From: Candidatus Latescibacterota bacterium
GTDB taxonomy: Bacteria > Latescibacterota > UBA2968 > GCA-2709665
Direction of reading: 5' to 3'
Length of the DNA stretch: 64,000 nt
Assembly: GCA_963667175.2 (NCBI GenBank)
Contig: CAXXXF010000012.1
Coordinates: forward strand, 192,001-256,000
Shown here: piece by piece, positions 12,180-39,248 of the stretch
Position numbering within the stretch: the first letter of the stretch is position 1
Layout of the letters: the number at the start of each line of letters is the position of its first letter
Program-made: the position numbers and the translations under genes
Notes under the pieces: model-generated
Told to the model about the DNA's origin: nothing
The model's database searches: none
Seen by the model: only the letters and a program-made list of their open reading frames with translations

Positions 12180-12914
12180 TTAGCGGAGCGCTTTCAACGA
12201 TACGTACAACCCTCGACCCGGCGTCAATCCATCCTCGTGATACCGGGTGCGGAGACCTGCGTCCGAAAGGATCTCAAGGAACCGCGACCGGTCGAAGAGC
12301 GCCAGTTCGTGGGTGTCGCGGAAGTATCGTACGCCCTTTTTTGTGGATAGGAGAAAATGGAAATCGAGAACGGCCAGGTCTCCGCGGCGCCTGCTCACGC
12401 TGTGCCTGGAGATTCTGACACCCTCTCCTGCCATGGTGCCGCCGTGGATCGACCCGGGCAGAAACGTCTCGGTCGTGAAAAAGGGCTCGACGACAAGGAC
12501 GCCGCCCGGTTTCAGGTGTTTTTCGAAACACGCGATTGACCGTCTAAGATTCCGGTAGGTCCTGACGTAAGCGATCGAACTGAACAGGCAGACGACGGCG
12601 TCGAAGCGGCGCTTCAGGTCGAAGGAGGTCATGTCGCGACAGCGTAGAGGGATTCCGGGATTCTTTCTGCGCGCCACCTTCAACATTTCACGGTTCAAAT
12701 CCAGTCCGGTCACGTCGTAGCGTTCCCGCAGGAACCGGGTGTGTTCTCCGGTCCCGCACGCGACGTCCAGCAGGGAGCGGCCGGATGACGCGCGCCTTGC
12801 CCGGATCAGTTGATGTACTTGCTCCGACTCGGCCCGATAATCCTTCCACTGGTACATCACGTCGTAGAACGGCGCCAGGGCGGCCCACATTTTTTCGGTT
12901 TCTCTGGGCGCCAC
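12180..12914 (-). CDS. Class I SAM-dependent methyltransferase
   Basis: LLDVACGTG, GLDLN, DMTSFDL..FDAVVCLFSSIAY, HLKPGG; resembles the TylM1/DesVI-like family. Confidence 0.88.
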   Translation of the reverse strand: MAPRETEKMWAALAPFYDVMYQWKDYRAESEQVHQLIRARRASSGRSLLDVACGTGEHTRFLRERYDVTGLDLNREMLKVARRKNPGIPLRCRDMTSFDLKRRFDAVVCLFSSIAYVRTYRNLRRSIACFEKHLKPGGVLVVEPFFTTETFLPGSIHGGTMAGEGVRISRHSVSRRRGDLAVLDFHFLLSTKKGVRYFRDTHELALFDRSRFLEILSDAGLRTRYHEDGLTPGRGLYVSLKALR

Positions 12915-12942: not shown

Positions 12943-13917
12943 CTAGCGAGCGAAAAAGTGATACGTGGCGCCCACGTGGAGCTGGTAGTCGGACGTCAGC
13001 TGGCTCTCGTTTACGTTCTGATAGACCGGTAGCGGCAGCCGGGCCTCCAGGCTCAGATTCTCCGTTGCCCGTATGCCCAGCTTTGGTGCGAGATACAGCC
13101 AGGCGCCGCCGCGTTTTCGGGCGATCTTTCCATATTGGAAGTAATCGCGCGACGTGTAGACGTGGTTCAGGCTGAGACCCGTGATAAGCATGTCCCCGTG
13201 CATGTAATCCATCGAGAAGATGCCCTGAAACTCGTTTCCGTATTTGTAGCCGTATACATTCTCGCGGGAAATAATGCGGGTGAACAGCATACCGTTGAAG
13301 AACAGGTTGTCGAATGCATGCGACAGACTGACCGAGAAAATCGGGTCCATGCTTCCGGACCCCACCTGCAGCAGGTCGGCGAAGCGCTCGCCGTATTCGT
13401 CGACCGCGTGGGTCGACCCGTTCGCGAGCTTGACGCCGGCGGAAAAGAGCAGGCCCGGCAATGATTCCGGCAGAGGAGGAGCAAAGTTCAACATCAGAAC
13501 GACGTCGCCGAGTCCCGCGGCATGCCGGATATATTTGCCGCCCTCATACTGGTTGTCGTACTGACCGGGAAGGAGGATTTTGTCGTTGGTTATGGAACGA
13601 AACGGGAGAACCACGGCGGCGCCGAACCAATCCTTGACCCCGTAACTGGCGAATACGGACACGGTGGACATGCTGGTCACTTCCTGGTTGATGTTGGGGA
13701 TCGGCCCGGTACCGTACATCGCATCGCCCAGGTACTCATACTCGTAATTCACGCTCAGTACCAGCAGGTCCCTGGTGATCAGACTGCCCTGCAGCATTCT
13801 CCCGCCCGGGAGCACGGGACGGCGTCAACTCACGCCGGGCTGCGCCTGAACGGACCGGCCTGCGAAAATCAGCTGGGCGAACAGAATCAACGGCAGCACC
13901 TGCAACGTACGTTTCAT
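12943..13917 (-). CDS. Outer-membrane beta-barrel protein with an in-frame TGA at codon 31 (candidate selenocysteine)
   Basis: ATG 13917 overlaps the upstream stop (ATGA). Signal peptide MKRTLQVLPLILFAQLIFAGRSVQA, TGA at 13825-13827, same frame as ORF 12943-13815. GLGD..L, LQVGSGS.D and a C-terminal aromatic strand (ATYHF). Confidence 0.7.
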
Positions 13918-14429
13918 GTTCCTGACTCCTCCGGGACTGAACGCTTCAGTGACTTATCCAGGATCTTTCGGTATTTCCGAAAAGATCCGTAACCCGAAAA
14001 AACGACCTCTCCCCGGGCGTTGACGATGACAACCGTGGGCGTCAAGCGGGTCTCGAAGGCTTCGAACACCCGACCATCCGAATCGATATAGCTGAGCAGC
14101 GATTCCTTCTTGTCGGCGAAGTAGGTCTGTATTTCCTCCGCGCTGTTCTTCCACGCGATGCCGAAGACCTGCACCCTGTTTCCGTATTTCTTCCTCAGCT
14201 TGTAGACGCGCTTCAACTCCCTCTTGCATGTCTTGCACCAGGTTGCCCACAGATAGACGAAGGACGTCCTGCCTTCGCAGACGTCGGCCAGACTCAGCGT
14301 ATCTCCTTCGAGCGTGACGACCTGCACCAGAGGCAGTGGATCGGGTCTGTCGTCCGCGGCGGCGGTATCAACAAAAAAAACGAACAGACCCGCAGTCAGC
14401 ACGACACCCATGATCCGGAGCAACTGCAT
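13914..14429 (-). CDS. Exported TlpA/ResA-like thiol-disulfide oxidoreductase
   Basis: Signal peptide, WATWCKTC, cis-Pro TPT. The ORF-track N-terminal extension is MITE-derived. Confidence 0.88.
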   Translation of the reverse strand: MQLLRIMGVVLTAGLFVFFVDTAAADDRPDPLPLVQVVTLEGDTLSLADVCEGRTSFVYLWATWCKTCKRELKRVYKLRKKYGNRVQVFGIAWKNSAEEIQTYFADKKESLLSYIDSDGRVFEAFETRLTPTVVIVNARGEVVFSGYGSFRKYRKILDKSLKRSVPEESGT

Positions 14430-14507
14430 TCCACCCACAATCGAACCCTCAGCAAACGGCATCCGATCCCAGATCCCCTGTCTCCAGCCGAACGGCCGAA
14501 GGGTTAT

Positions 14508-14714
14508 CAGCCCGTTGAAAAAGTCCATCCGGTCTGCCTGCCTGTGCGTTCGCACGCAGACAGGCGTCCGGCCCTTGTGGCCGAAATACGGCGTTGCCTG
14601 CCTGCAGCAGGCAGGCGCTCCCTCCCCGAATCCAGGGATTCGCGTCGGTCGCGCGCCTTGTCTTCGGCCACAATGCCTCGGCCTCGCCTGCAGAGCGACT
14701 TTTTCAACGGACTG
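14508..14714 (-). mobile_element. MITE copy 1 (~207 bp)
   Basis: Terminal inverted repeats CAG(C/T)CCGTTGAAAAAGTC; homologous to 38956-39164 and 47620-47812; no transposase. Confidence 0.85.
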
Positions 14715-15908
14715 TTATCTCCTGGCGACGTGCTTGTACACCACGCGGATGCGATGGTTAAACGTATCGGCAATGTACAGATTCTCGTCCTGATCGAGCG
14801 CGACTCCGAACGGACTCCGGAGTTTGCCCCACCGGGGATGGTCGCTGTCGCCCTTGAAACCCGGCTCTCCGCACCTGCCGGCAAGCGTGCTAATGGTCCC
14901 CTCCGTATCCACCTTGCGGATACAGTGGTTGCCGGTATCGGCAATGTACAGATTTCCCTCCGCGTCGACGACCACGTCGCCGGGGCGGGAAAGGCTGGCC
15001 TGGACCGCCGGGCCGCCGTCTCCTGAATACGTGCCGGCGGTGGGGCCGATGCTGCCGCCGCCGGCCACCGTACTGATCCTGCCCGTGGCGTCCACCATGC
15101 GGATGCGGTTGTTGAACGTATCGGCGATATACAGGTTGCCCCTGCCATCCATCGCAATCCGGCCCGCCGGCTGCGCGGCGTCTCCCGTGGGCGCATAGAG
15201 GTCGGCCAGGACAGCCGGACCGCCGTCCCCGGAAAACCCCTCCCGTCCGGTGCCCGCGACGGTGGAGATCACACCGTCAAGGTCCACCATTCGTATGCGA
15301 AGGTTGCCCTGATCCGAGATATACATGCGACCGGCTGGATCGAAACCCGTGGAACTCGGCAGGTTCAGCGAGGCCTCGAGAGCGGGGCCGCCGTCACCCC
15401 CGAATCCGCGGTCGCCACGTCCGGCAATGGGTTCGACGCGACCGGAGGTCGAGTCGTATCTCAGGATCGTGGCGTTCTGCCAGGCCGACACAATCAGCCG
15501 TCCCTGGAGATCGAAGGAAATATGGGTCGGGTGATCGACGCCCGTCTCCAGCGCGGGGCCCGCGAGCGGATGGCCCGGTTCGCCGTTGCCAATGAGCGGT
15601 CGGACGATTCCGTTGTCGATCACGACAACCCGATTGTTGTTCCAGTCCAGAATGTACGTCCGGTCGTCGGGGCCGACGGCCACGTCCTGGGGGAAATACA
15701 GGTTCGTGTCAAGAGGACCCGATCCCGCGGCGCTTCTGCCCGGGTCTCCGGTGCCGGCGAGGGTGATCATGATCCCGTAGGGCAACCCCGGGTACTCTTC
15801 GTACAAATCGTCGTCCACGGTGGGAGGCGTCTTTCCGCAAGCCGCCACGGCCGCGGAAGCCCCGACCACGAACGCGAGCCGAACCCACACCTGTTTCAGT
15901 AATTTCAT
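14715..15908 (-). CDS. NHL-repeat beta-propeller lipoprotein
   Basis: Repeated GDGGPA..A.L..P..V..D..GNLYIADT.N.RIR; lipobox VAAC; start moved to ATG 15908. Confidence 0.88.
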   Translation of the reverse strand: MKLLKQVWVRLAFVVGASAAVAACGKTPPTVDDDLYEEYPGLPYGIMITLAGTGDPGRSAAGSGPLDTNLYFPQDVAVGPDDRTYILDWNNNRVVVIDNGIVRPLIGNGEPGHPLAGPALETGVDHPTHISFDLQGRLIVSAWQNATILRYDSTSGRVEPIAGRGDRGFGGDGGPALEASLNLPSSTGFDPAGRMYISDQGNLRIRMVDLDGVISTVAGTGREGFSGDGGPAVLADLYAPTGDAAQPAGRIAMDGRGNLYIADTFNNRIRMVDATGRISTVAGGGSIGPTAGTYSGDGGPAVQASLSRPGDVVVDAEGNLYIADTGNHCIRKVDTEGTISTLAGRCGEPGFKGDSDHPRWGKLRSPFGVALDQDENLYIADTFNHRIRVVYKHVARR

Positions 15909-16043
15909 CTCTGTAAAAATAGGAACAAGCGAGCCGCGATTCAACCCCGAAATCGGTTCGGTTGCCTGAATCGCGCGCATTGAGCCCTGTACGCCGGTCC
16001 CACCGGCGAACCGCGACCTGAACGCCATAACGGCCGGGGACCG

Positions 16044-16928
16044 TCAAACCCCGGCAAACGCCCGATAGTGTGCCAGAGGCTGGGACATGCCTTCATCGAG
16101 CTCCGTCAATACCAGTCGCATCCGGACCGTGCGTCGGCTGCCGGGTACCAGGTCGTCGCCGAACAGCGAAAAATCGAACGCGCTGTAATCCGTCATGCGG
16201 TCGGCTTCGTCCTCCACGTGGTACCGAGTACTAATGGCATAACAGTCCGCTTCCGTGGACATCAGCACCACGCCCAGCCGGTTCGCGGTGTCCGTCAGGA
16301 AGGAGAACGGATACCCGTAGTACCGCACCGGACACATCTGCACGGTGGGCGAGTTGCCCTCGCTGCGGTTCCACCGCCCGTCCACGCAGCGCCGGGCGGC
16401 GTGCGGGTCCCGAGGAAACACGACGACGGCGCCGCGAAAGACGTCGTTGACCATGGGAACGACAAGCTCCGGGGCCGTGCTCGCCCTGCCGTACCGGCTT
16501 CCGTGGAGATAGACGTGCGGCCGCAGTGTCTTGTGAAAATAGTTGGAAAGGAAGAGCTCATATCCCGCATAGGTACCTTCGCAACTCACCGTCACCGTCA
16601 GGTCGATCCCGTTGGGCTCGATCACCTCGTACCGTGCGGTCAGCGCTCCCTGGTGCGTTTCGGTTACGGGCCAATGCACGTCAACGGTGTTGTTGCCGGC
16701 TTCGGTCGTGCGTTCCATCAGGCGCGGCTGGTCCAGGCCCTGGTGAACCGCGAACAGCCGGAACAGGTTCAATGCCGAATAATCTGGATGAATCACCTGT
16801 CTGCCGGTGATCTTGTCGGTGAGCGTCCACACGCCGTGATAGTCGCCCGACGCGCGAATCTCGCCGGACATCGCTTCCGTCTCGAACCGATAGGTGTCGG
16901 TAGCCGGGAGATATACGAGCTCGGCCAT
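16044..16928 (-). CDS. Hypothetical protein
   Basis: 294 aa, RBS GAGGAGG, natural composition, co-directional with neighbours. Confidence 0.7.
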   Translation of the reverse strand: MAELVYLPATDTYRFETEAMSGEIRASGDYHGVWTLTDKITGRQVIHPDYSALNLFRLFAVHQGLDQPRLMERTTEAGNNTVDVHWPVTETHQGALTARYEVIEPNGIDLTVTVSCEGTYAGYELFLSNYFHKTLRPHVYLHGSRYGRASTAPELVVPMVNDVFRGAVVVFPRDPHAARRCVDGRWNRSEGNSPTVQMCPVRYYGYPFSFLTDTANRLGVVLMSTEADCYAISTRYHVEDEADRMTDYSAFDFSLFGDDLVPGSRRTVRMRLVLTELDEGMSQPLAHYRAFAGV

Positions 16929-16951: not shown

Positions 16952-18400
16952 CTATTCAGCTGCGAGCTCTTCGATTCGTTCCGCCATGGCCTCGGTCAGG
17001 ATTTCGAGGCAACCCGGCGCCAGACTCGACGGCTCCTCCTGGTACAGTCCCTTGCCGTACGCCTCTCTCCGCAGAAGATAGGCGACCTGCACGTTGCCCG
17101 CGAGCGGGGAAACCAGAATCGCGAACCCGGGAAACCGCCGGCGCAACACGACCTGAAGATCGCTGTAGGGTTCCCCGCCGCAGGTCACCCAGATTGCGTC
17201 TCCCATTCGGTAAACCGAAAATCCATAGGGATATGACTCGCCCGGCGGCAGGTTCGCGATCCGCGCGAGCCAGCGCCTGGCCCGTTCGGCCCGGGCGCCG
17301 CAGGACCGGGCTTTCAGGGCATCCCCCTCCGCGTCAGCGGCCCGTTGAGCCTCGGACCACCGCGCCACGTCTTCCCGGAGCGTTTCCCGGTCGGGCCGTT
17401 CCACCATCGGCAGATCCACGGAATAGACGCCCCCGGCGACAAGAGAAGCTCCGCGTAAACGCTCCCGGCCGAATGCCGAATGCGCCCACGTGCCCAGCGT
17501 GGCGCCCGAGATCACGGGCCCCCGGTATTCGAAGTCCATACCCGGCGGGCCCATCGACGTCAGGACGGACAGCGCCGCAAACCCGAGTTGCCTGCCGTTC
17601 TTGTCGGCCGCCGCGAGATCTCCGACAAACCCGTCTTTCGGTCCCAGGTCTCCACAGGGCGCCAGCGCGAACGTGCATGGCGCCCCGGTCGCCCTCTCGA
17701 CTTCCTCCCGCATGGCGCCCACGTAGTCCGGGCTGATGAGGGTGTTTTTCCAGGCCAGCGTGGTCGGGTGGCATCCGTAATTGACAATCGTCGCGACGGT
17801 CGCGCCGTCCACGTCGCACATCCGTCCCACCAGCAGCGAATCGTCACACTCGCCGTCCGGATTGTACCCGCACACGTACCCGCCGAACGCGTCATCCCGG
17901 TAATCCCGGTCCGCCGCCATGCTGCAACGCCCGTCCGCGTAGGTGACCAGCACCTCCCGCATCCCCGCCACCGCGCTCGTACAGGCCTGCGCGAGCTTCT
18001 CTCCGACGTCCTTCAGAAACGGTTGTATCAGTTCGCCTCCCGGCATGCCGAACCGATCCGGTGCGTACCATCCCGAGGCATGGGTGTGCGAAAACGTCAC
18101 GTCTGCCCGATCCGGCCCGACCCCCGCGGCGTCGCAGAGGGCCTTCACGAGCGCCGCGTACTGTTGAGCGACCAGACCGACCAGGTCCAGGTGCGCCCGA
18201 ACCAGCGCAACTTTCCCCGGCGAGTCGACCGACGCGAACGCGAGCACGTCGGCCAGAATCGGGCGGTGAACCCCCGTTGCCCTGTCGTGCCGGGCGGCGC
18301 CCCACATCCGATGGTAGATCCCCACCGGCGGCGTTATATCCACTCTCGCAAAGCCAAAGCGCACGCGGGAGGTCGGCGCGCGTTCCGTTCTTCGAACCAT
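16952..18400 (-). CDS. Neutral/alkaline ceramidase-like amidohydrolase
   Basis: ARVDITPPVG, SHTHAS, NYGCHPT, ISPDYVG, GEPY. Confidence 0.75.
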   Translation of the reverse strand: MVRRTERAPTSRVRFGFARVDITPPVGIYHRMWGAARHDRATGVHRPILADVLAFASVDSPGKVALVRAHLDLVGLVAQQYAALVKALCDAAGVGPDRADVTFSHTHASGWYAPDRFGMPGGELIQPFLKDVGEKLAQACTSAVAGMREVLVTYADGRCSMAADRDYRDDAFGGYVCGYNPDGECDDSLLVGRMCDVDGATVATIVNYGCHPTTLAWKNTLISPDYVGAMREEVERATGAPCTFALAPCGDLGPKDGFVGDLAAADKNGRQLGFAALSVLTSMGPPGMDFEYRGPVISGATLGTWAHSAFGRERLRGASLVAGGVYSVDLPMVERPDRETLREDVARWSEAQRAADAEGDALKARSCGARAERARRWLARIANLPPGESYPYGFSVYRMGDAIWVTCGGEPYSDLQVVLRRRFPGFAILVSPLAGNVQVAYLLRREAYGKGLYQEEPSSLAPGCLEILTEAMAERIEELAAE

Positions 18401-38955: not shown

Positions 38956-39164
38956 CAATCCGTTGAAAAAGCCGCTCTGCAGGCGAGGCCGAGTCATTGT
39001 CGCCGAAGACAAGGCGCGCCTGTCTGCGTGCGGACACGCACAGGCAGGCGACCGACGCGAATCCCTGGATTCGGGGAGGGAGCGCCTGCCTGCTGCAGGC
39101 AGGCAACGCCGTATTTCGGTCACAAGGGCCGGACGCAGACCGGATGGACTTTTTCAACGGGCTG
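38956..39164 (+). mobile_element. MITE copy 2 (~209 bp)
   Basis: CAATCCGTTGAAAAAGCC...GACTTTTTCAACGGGCTG; close reverse complement of copy 1. Confidence 0.85.
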
Positions 39165-39248
39165 TTTGGATAGTTCCGTGCCAAATACAACAACTGCCGC
39201 GAACCCGGAACCGCACGGGTTCCCCGGCTCCCGGCCCCTGACGGCGCA

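Follow-up and report, generated by a model that had tools for sequence, protein, structure and literature searches.

The question raised by this locus is whether a TGA codon lying inside an otherwise intact coding frame ends a gene or is read as an amino acid. The codon occupies positions 13825-13827, on the minus strand, of a stretch of 64,000 nucleotides (nt) from a Candidatus Latescibacterota bacterium (assembly GCA_963667175.2, contig CAXXXF010000012.1, positions 192,001 to 256,000), which is here called the window. It is highly probable, as judged from the comparison of homologous sequences, that this is a real selenoprotein gene in which the UGA is selenocysteine (Sec), that the product belongs to an undescribed family of outer-membrane beta-barrels, and that the Sec is probably recycled by a TlpA-like thioredoxin. 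Nothing is unusual in the way the codon is decoded; what is new is where the Sec is placed and that it is paired with a thioredoxin. The Sec may serve either as a redox site recycled by the thioredoxin or as a soft ligand.

Reading frame and putative recoded codon

The frame opens on the minus strand with an ATG (13917-13915) that forms an ATGA overlap with the stop codon, TGA 13916-13914, of the thioredoxin-like gene upstream, and AGGAG is found at 13930-13926 on the same strand, 8 nt 5' of this ATG. When 12943-13917 is translated on the minus strand with TGA=U, a product of 324 residues with a single U, at residue 31, is obtained before the TAG. This product begins MKRTLQVLPLILFAQLIFAGRSVQAQPGVS-U-RRPVLPGG, and the N-terminus of the precursor can be divided as MKRTLQVLPLILFAQLIFAGRSVQA-QPGVS-U-RRPVLPGGRML. 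Under translation table 11 the open reading frame (ORF) opens at GTG 13815 (MLPGGRMLQ...) and is without signal peptide. An earlier reading of the letters alone (the sequence-only reading) had described the frame as running through one TGA to an ATG coupled to the TlpA stop, and the called protein as having no signal peptide; its coordinates and translation proved exact. The gene has the following parts.

12943..13917, minus strand: complete predicted selenoprotein coding sequence, 324 codons and TAG, for signal peptide, Sec, N-terminal segment and beta-barrel (TGA=U translation, full-length one-TGA homologs and AlphaFold2 model)
13843..13917, minus strand: predicted signal peptide, 25 codons, MKRTLQVLPLILFAQLIFAGRSVQA (sequence inspection and homolog comparison)
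13825..13827, minus strand: in-frame UGA read as putative Sec, residue 31 of the precursor and about residue 6 of the mature protein (conserved TGA in homologs, synonymous flanks)
13799..13812, minus strand: hairpin CUCCC-GGGC-GGGAG resembling a selenocysteine insertion sequence (SECIS) and also encoding L-P-G-G-(R/S) (pairing and covariation in homologs, bacterial SECIS model)
12946..13842, minus strand: predicted mature protein, with a 25-residue N-terminal segment bearing the Sec, then the beta-barrel, and no Cys (Foldseek, family profile)

In the signal peptide an n-region with K/R is followed by a hydrophobic core and an AxA-like end, and residues 3-19 form a helix in the AlphaFold2 model. 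It varies freely among homologs while the A-Q junction is kept, and cleavage would take place after VQA. A lipobox reading of G-V-S-U was dropped on inspection, the Gly standing at position -3 and an AxA site preceding it. TGA is still a stop codon in these organisms, as it ends the TlpA gene of the window and 6 of the 18 family genes examined.

Conservation of the UGA and translation across it

Two sets of homologs were compared. A six-frame search of 41 related genomes gave 36 matches, 33 of them with a single TGA. Each of the 15 genomes of the genus contributes two of these loci, the ortholog and a paralog of 54% identity, and a second genus contributes three. The matches left over are one C-terminal fragment, one relative of 27% identity and one fragment of 89 residues. 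All of the 33 one-TGA loci belong to the same bacterial family, and in each the TGA stands between AQ(P/G)GVS and RRPVLPGG. The second set, from a scan with one genome per species, holds 43 loci, 41 close (41-93% identity) and two distant (24-26%). The record titles of the close homologs name Latescibacterota (some with the label Gemmatimonadota), KSB1, Calditrichaceae, Fidelibacterota and Marinimicrobia/Neomarinimicrobiota, and every one of them (41/41) has the TGA within AQGG(V/I)(S/N)-U-RRPxLPGG; the two distant loci carry ASCGSA(N/S)C in place of this motif. Moreover, a divergent subfamily with a fused thioredoxin has TGA at the same position in 9/9 loci. As the two sets share genomes, their 74 loci reduce to 48 unique coding sequences, 46 of them full length.

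The codons on either side of the TGA vary synonymously. The two Arg codons directly after it each occur in five to six forms (2.0-2.4 bits), and on its 5' side the codons for Ala, Gln and Gly in the AQGGVS stretch change in the same manner; the region on both sides of the TGA is therefore translated. Two full-length relatives with Ser at this site (P0012 and P0020) are continuous proteins that keep the frame and the motif across it. Of 36 homologs in the protein database 33 have 200-289 residues and start after the TGA (by length and coverage; 11 sequences were read), and thus gene callers truncate the barrel family, as the sequence-only reading had expected. The 54%-identical paralog in the same genome (G000:C5:30152-31081; L106:8153-9082, plus strand) has its own TGA and a compensatory hairpin, CUUCC/GGAAG.

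In more distant homologs the mature protein begins with a segment that contains CC, CxC or SCGxxxCP, in some of them together with His-rich loops. Among those of 24-30% identity, L039, L040, L042-L044 (of the same class), L104 and L105 have a mature N-terminus of the form (A/G)SCGxxxC(P/F)L, and L039, L040, L042 and L043 additionally carry a His/Asp-rich loop. The sequences suggest that the Cys-type homologs with such a loop may be a metal-binding branch of the barrel superfamily.

It is in sponge metagenomes that the window sequence is best represented. The TGA site is bridged by contigs of two other studies, with no difference there among the rows listed; run X1 has no contig over 13753-13860.

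Selenocysteine machinery

The genome holds the whole machinery for Sec insertion, whose presence had been named as a check. The genes selA, selB and selC (tRNA-Sec, 73 bits) are clustered on contig 6 (G000 C6:264741-268028), and selD is placed on contig 13 (G000:C13:163286-164209, minus strand). The latter is itself a selenoprotein gene with a UGA (CGU-AAK), and in its SECIS an 8-bp stem carries the loop GGUC, at nt 21-24 counted from the U of the UGA. The GGGC loop of the barrel gene shares both this spacing and the GGNC form, selD serving here as an internal control. In addition, selA is present in 39 of the 41 related genomes and in four of the five genomes of other phyla that carry the barrel gene, the fifth being a 1.6-Mb metagenome-assembled genome (MAG).

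The SECIS-like hairpin

The stem begins 12 nt after the UGA (13827-13825) with CTCCC at 13812-13808, followed by the loop GGGC at 13807-13804, which lies 17 nt after the UGA, and by GGGAG at 13803-13799, all on the minus strand and where the sequence-only reading had placed them. According to a 2026 review, the bacterial SECIS (bSECIS) model comprises a loop of 3-9 nt, a stem of 4-16 bp, a G in the first two loop positions, a distance of 16-37 nt from the UGA and a minimum free energy of at most -7.5. The fit to this model that had been claimed holds for the 4-nt loop, the 5-bp stem, the position of the G and the spacing, and the hairpin co-varies; its energy is borderline (-7.0 kcal/mol alone, -8.3 in context). 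The support for the hairpin is comparative, coming from the aligned homologs. The five core pairs are paired in 28/28 distinct sequences of the same bacterial family, where the one varying pair is CG in 22, UA in five and UG in one. Among the 46 unique genes the stem is CUCCC/GGGAG in 34, CUUCC/GGAAG in nine, has a U.G in two and a broken terminal pair in one, and C.A was found at the varying pair in none of them. On a tree built without the hairpin columns, the change C>U in the stem arose at least six times and G>A in its partner at least four times, and neither was ever seen in the opposite direction. Three to four independent pairs go the same way, none the opposite way, and one or two remain U.G.

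The codon usage of the hairpin is also restrained. Its Leu is encoded by CTC or CTT only (0.79 bit, against 1.46-2.31 at other conserved Leu positions), and its two Gly codons have 0.71 and 0.79 bit against 1.27-1.97 for Gly elsewhere. The GC-rich hairpin is retained in the AT-rich genes of Marinimicrobia. GG is followed by Arg (AGA) or Ser (AGY); the amino acid thus changes, but the paired AG does not. Covariation is also seen between loop positions 1 and 4 (G..C against A..U), which matches the N1-N2 pair of the published bSECIS model. Longer helices proposed by RNAalifold (columns 5-8/48-51 and 14-19/38-43) were dropped, being 55-100% paired per pair with a single compensatory change.

The 5.5-Mb genome was also scanned for TGA, 12 nt, a perfect 5-bp stem and a GGNN tetraloop. 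This pattern occurs at 29 sites. Long protein-like frames flank the TGA on either side at no more than three of them, namely selD and the two copies of the barrel gene, which makes the arrangement at the barrel gene more than a coincidence. The other 26 are not coding-like on both sides by frame length, and six of them that were translated gave Arg/Pro-rich frames or stop-plus-terminator contexts. The family would be a clean case of a peptide motif (LPGG/LPVG) that is a translated SECIS hairpin.

The barrel protein

The window protein matches no Pfam family at E<=10 and no family of NCBIfam release 20.0 at E<=0.1, although its relatives P0017 (25.9 bits), P0041 (23.7) and P0127 (39.7) weakly pass the 22-bit cut-off of PF13557. 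The AlphaFold2 model, made with a 44-sequence alignment, has a predicted local distance difference test (pLDDT) score of 90.5 and a predicted template modelling (TM) score of 0.84, and 13 strand elements, some of them split, were assigned to it by DSSP. Its top matches in Foldseek are FapF (E 8e-12) and the COG4313 channel Pput2725 (4rl8, TM score 0.64/0.76). The sequence profile of the family matches FapF as well (E 3e-9), and this was the only PDB family matched. The model is a confident barrel, and it resembles the 12-stranded COG4313/FapF channels.

No Cys occurs in any of the 46 mature family sequences, and therefore any resolving thiol comes in trans; the predicted Sec is the sole chalcogen nucleophile of the barrel protein. 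In the structure of Pput2725, the N-terminal ~14 residues fill the barrel lumen on the periplasmic side, according to the available part of its description (PMC4493636). By analogy, the segment bearing the Sec would be situated at or in the periplasmic mouth of the barrel.

The proposed thioredoxin partner and natural fusions

The gene upstream of the barrel encodes the proposed reductant of the Sec.

13914..14462, minus strand: TlpA/ResA-like membrane-anchored thioredoxin-fold protein with WATWCKTC (Pfam Redoxin and AhpC-TSA matches; NCBIfam ResA/TlpA-like, below cut-offs)

The called start of this gene, GTG 14555, falls inside a dispersed repeat, and the true start is probably ATG 14462 or 14429. 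A TlpA homolog stands directly upstream of the barrel in 23 of the 41 close loci, all 23 with CxxC, and these loci span Latescibacterota, KSB1, Calditrichaceae, Fidelibacterota and Marinimicrobia. In a sister subfamily (30-40% identity) a C-terminal thioredoxin domain is fused to the barrel; PF00085 was found by Pfam on both of the fusion proteins scanned, and seven further representatives were read. The fused proteins are all N-terminally truncated in the database. When upstream DNA is available (L107-L113, L116 and L117), a signal peptide followed by (K/R)-U-A-(S/P)-x-x-LPVG is seen in 9/9 loci, and 12 nt after the TGA there is a hairpin, either CUCCC-GGUC-GGGAG, CUCCC-AGUU-GGGGG or the compensatory CUUCC-GGUC-GGAAG. 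The C-terminal CxxC is present in 8/8 full-length fusion genes. The two termini of an even-stranded barrel both face the periplasm, so the fused thioredoxin and the Sec segment would be on the same side. An AhpC/Redoxin gene follows one of the distant Cys-type homologs after 10 nt. The link with the adjacent CxxC protein, which the sequence-only reading had put forward, is supported by this synteny across phyla and by the natural fusions of barrel and thioredoxin.

Proposed mechanism and alternative explanations

In the mechanism proposed, translation would start at ATG 13917 and a Sec-type signal peptide would direct the export of the barrel protein. The UGA would be decoded as Sec by SelB and tRNA-Sec, directed by the hairpin of 5 bp and 4-nt loop found 12 nt downstream. 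The product would be an outer-membrane beta-barrel of the COG4313/FapF fold class, with the Sec on an N-terminal segment of about 25 residues, in the motif Q-(P/G)-G-V-S-U-R-R-P, and this segment would lie at or in the periplasmic mouth if the analogy with COG4313 is followed. There the selenol may react with a substrate, which would be an oxidant or else a chalcogen or metalloid species in oxidised form. The dedicated TlpA-like thioredoxin may then reduce the Sec again, its CxxC forming a mixed selenenylsulfide on the way. A lipoprotein beta-propeller may be a further conserved partner. A bolder form of this mechanism, which is rather improbable, would have the Sec on a plug segment in the channel acting as a covalent relay, the substrate from outside being captured at the outer membrane as an Se-S, Se-Se or Se-O adduct and set free into the periplasm once the thioredoxin, fused or TlpA-like, has reduced this adduct. 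Candidate substrates would be, for example, polysulfide or elemental sulfur, selenium species and peroxide. If true, the relay would be a redox-driven, TonB-independent device of outer-membrane import or detoxification built on selenocysteine, together with the lipoprotein beta-propeller.

The same recoding could serve a different chemistry, with the Sec as a ligand for a soft metal or metalloid (Cu, Hg, As or Se species) at the channel mouth, in uptake or sequestration. To this explanation a minor but real share of probability is given. TlpA, which is known as the reductant of Sco and CuA proteins, would then only keep the Sec reduced, as for copper-site proteins. The Cys pairs (CC, CxC, SCGxxxCP) at the mature N-terminus of the distant homologs speak for it, as do the His/Asp-rich loops of metal-binding look in several of them, and many selenoproteins are predicted metal binders (2026 review). 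However, the Sec family itself has a single Sec, no Cys and no His-rich loop, and the two Arg that follow the Sec (with a Lys preceding it in the fused subfamily) disfavour the binding of cations. Genes for metal resistance or metal transport were not seen among the annotated neighbours either.

The remaining explanations deny the Sec altogether. It is very unlikely that the UGA is read through without it, by near-cognate Trp, Cys or Arg insertion or by a generic read-through stimulated by the hairpin. Two database proteins with W at the site (P0050 and P0170) would fit this, but the Sec machinery of the genome is complete and the hairpin has the geometry and GGNC loop of the selD SECIS. Moreover TGG and TGC are one mutation away and yet the TGA is kept in 41/41 and 9/9 loci across phyla, and the W proteins are closest to a TGA clade (L099), so they probably derive from gene calling with TGA=W. 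Slightly less credit still is due to a real stop, with a leader of 30 residues, a barrel initiated at GTG 13815 or ATG 13797 and the hairpin as a coupling or attenuation signal. It equals the output of the gene callers, and an ATG and a GTG do lie shortly 3' of the TGA in the window; against this, a confident outer-membrane barrel would be left without a signal peptide. The RRP codons that separate the TGA from the alternative starts are conserved as protein with synonymous change free, the internal starts themselves are not kept (R or S at residue 40, M or L at residue 41), and the Ser relatives are continuous proteins with the same motif. A pseudogene, or a TGA produced by an assembly or sequencing error, is hardly credible: a single in-frame stop within an otherwise intact gene might suggest it, but the same TGA is found in all homologous loci, in dozens of independent assemblies including closed chromosomes, and the bridging contigs show no difference at the site among the rows listed.

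Several observations weigh against the reading of the UGA as a functional Sec at the barrel mouth. The homologs had been expected to show Cys or TGA at the aligned position with conservation on both sides; the TGA and the conservation were found, and a Cys-for-Sec homolog was not found in the close family. The only full-length relatives without TGA have Ser (P0012 and P0020), and the more distant P0041 and P0061 have Pro or Ala, so that the Sec may be dispensable in some lineages. Homologs with Trp, Arg or Gly had been named as a possible refutation: TGA was kept in 33/33, 41/41 and 9/9 loci, and W does appear in P0050 and P0170, for which the underlying codon was not seen. Their nearest relative with DNA, L099, has TGA, and the W is probably due to gene calling under a TGA=W table. 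The Cys pairs of the distant homologs share the N-terminal segment, yet they are 2-3 MAFFT columns away from the Sec. The Sec trait is order-wide (selA in 39/41), and because of this the co-occurrence of the barrel gene with selA is not discriminating.

Other reservations concern the hairpin, which is short and varies at one stem pair only. The 61-nt stretch has z = +1.59 against shuffles, the hairpin thus being not thermodynamically special, and folding of the single sequence favours other structures. The sign test on the few independent pairs is not significant (p 0.125-0.25), the GG of the loop is also imposed by a Gly codon, and the outer RNAalifold helices are poorly conserved. As for the protein, model residues 21-40, including the Sec, have a pLDDT of just 60-64, and it is by analogy with the COG4313 structure that the Sec is given its place in the barrel. 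No TlpA-like gene was found within 3 kb in 18 of the 41 loci, which are 12 Latescibacterota paralogs and six others. A 276-nt contig of the marine metatranscriptome run X20 covers 13337-13612 only; it differs at 12 positions and comes from a relative, and it may be DNA and is not proof of transcription.

Neighbouring genes and a dispersed repeat

Two further genes next to the barrel and TlpA genes were assigned.

14715..16028, minus strand: NHL-repeat beta-propeller, probably a lipoprotein (Pfam NHL and TEN_NHL; putative lipobox AAVAAC after an internal Met)
12180..12914, minus strand: S-adenosylmethionine-dependent methyltransferase directly downstream of the barrel (Pfam Methyltransf_25)

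The NHL propeller is placed upstream of TlpA in 13 orthologous loci, 12 of the genus of the window and L074. The methyltransferase is syntenic only within the genus, with tblastn matches in 12 orthologous loci and none in other phyla. Further neighbours were examined at 22 loci, and in 14 of these a lipoprotein with a 7-bladed beta-propeller is encoded directly downstream of the barrel as a conserved operon partner, with a lipobox in 14/14. The 14 loci include the paralog and all five Marinimicrobia-like loci that have no TlpA; they are L075, L076, L079, L082, L089, L090, L093-L097, L099, L101 and L103, and the propeller has about 350 residues with weak SGL/Lactonase matches. An FG-GAP/UnbV_ASPIC protein with a type-IX secretion tail was found in 12 of the 22 loci.

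The paralog on contig C5 of the same genome has no TlpA-like gene nearby, an overlapping downstream gene for a beta-propeller of 422 residues and, about 2 kb upstream on the other strand, an ORF resembling a multihaem cytochrome. Upstream of the NHL gene of the window there are two ORFs, 16047-16928 and 16955-18400 on the minus strand, whose products of 294 and 482 residues matched no Pfam family at E<=0.001. The repeat mentioned above is intergenic and lies at 14505-14537 (plus strand) and 39135-39167 (minus strand) of the window. Across the 5.5-Mb genome there are 102 copies of its 33-nt core (<=4 mismatches), which often stand immediately behind a stop codon and ahead of the palindrome CCTGCCTGTGCGTTCGCACGCAGACAGGCG. 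In the read overlay the repeat caused a very high depth of contigs with many loose ends.

Comparison with known systems

Bacterial selenoproteins are mostly soluble redox enzymes. The barrel family is kept in the databases as truncated hypothetical proteins without signal peptide, and its correct annotation would add a selenoprotein to these phyla and put Sec at the cell envelope. The built-in partner, an adjacent or fused thioredoxin, renders the chemistry testable. The family is absent from the 119 families of the inventory of the 2026 review (Table 1), and no description of it was found in the literature, although supplementary lists of candidates (such as that of a groundwater-MAG study) may hold it.

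Only two outer-membrane families could be recognised in that table, GSU2204 (NF041027) and an FCYXU-type TonB-dependent receptor (NF049945). They are, like the window protein, bacterial outer-membrane barrels with a predicted Sec. However, GSU2204 is an MtrB/PioB barrel and FCYXU a TonB-dependent receptor, both of other barrel classes, and neither NF041027 nor NF049945 matched the window protein in the NCBIfam search. The Sec motifs differ as well, being CxxU in the receptor and not given for GSU2204, and a dedicated thioredoxin is mentioned for neither. The sequence-only reading had cited ExtI of Geobacter as a Sec-containing porin, which did not hold: in the part of the ExtI paper that is available (PMC5877670), ExtI is a 45-kDa putative porin of the outer membrane tied to selenium and tellurium chemistry, no Sec is mentioned for it, and the putative selenoprotein is the cytochrome ExtKL. 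The likeness to ExtI is by description only, and a multihaem cytochrome was not seen next to the window gene.

The COG4313/PF13557 channels such as Pput2725 (PDB 4RL8) resemble the window protein in fold and size; it has no Pfam match of its own, and some of its relatives pass the threshold. These channels are implicated in the uptake of hydrophobic molecules, according to the available part of the Pput2725 paper (PMC4493636). The known COG4313 members have neither a Sec nor a thioredoxin partner, unlike the window system. FapF, the amyloid-secretion barrel of Pseudomonas (PDB 5O65), is the best structural match, but it has no Sec and shares ~14% sequence identity with the window protein. No fap genes were seen among the annotated neighbours of the barrel loci. 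FapF has, moreover, a coiled-coil and plug architecture.

The TlpA-like protein of the window is, by its scores below the NCBIfam cut-offs, a relative and not an ortholog of ResA/TlpA. It shares with the TlpA/ResA reductases the WxxWCxxC fold, the membrane anchor and the tight link to one client. The usual client of these reductases is a Cys pair of a cytochrome or copper protein, whereas here it would be a single Sec carried by an outer-membrane barrel.

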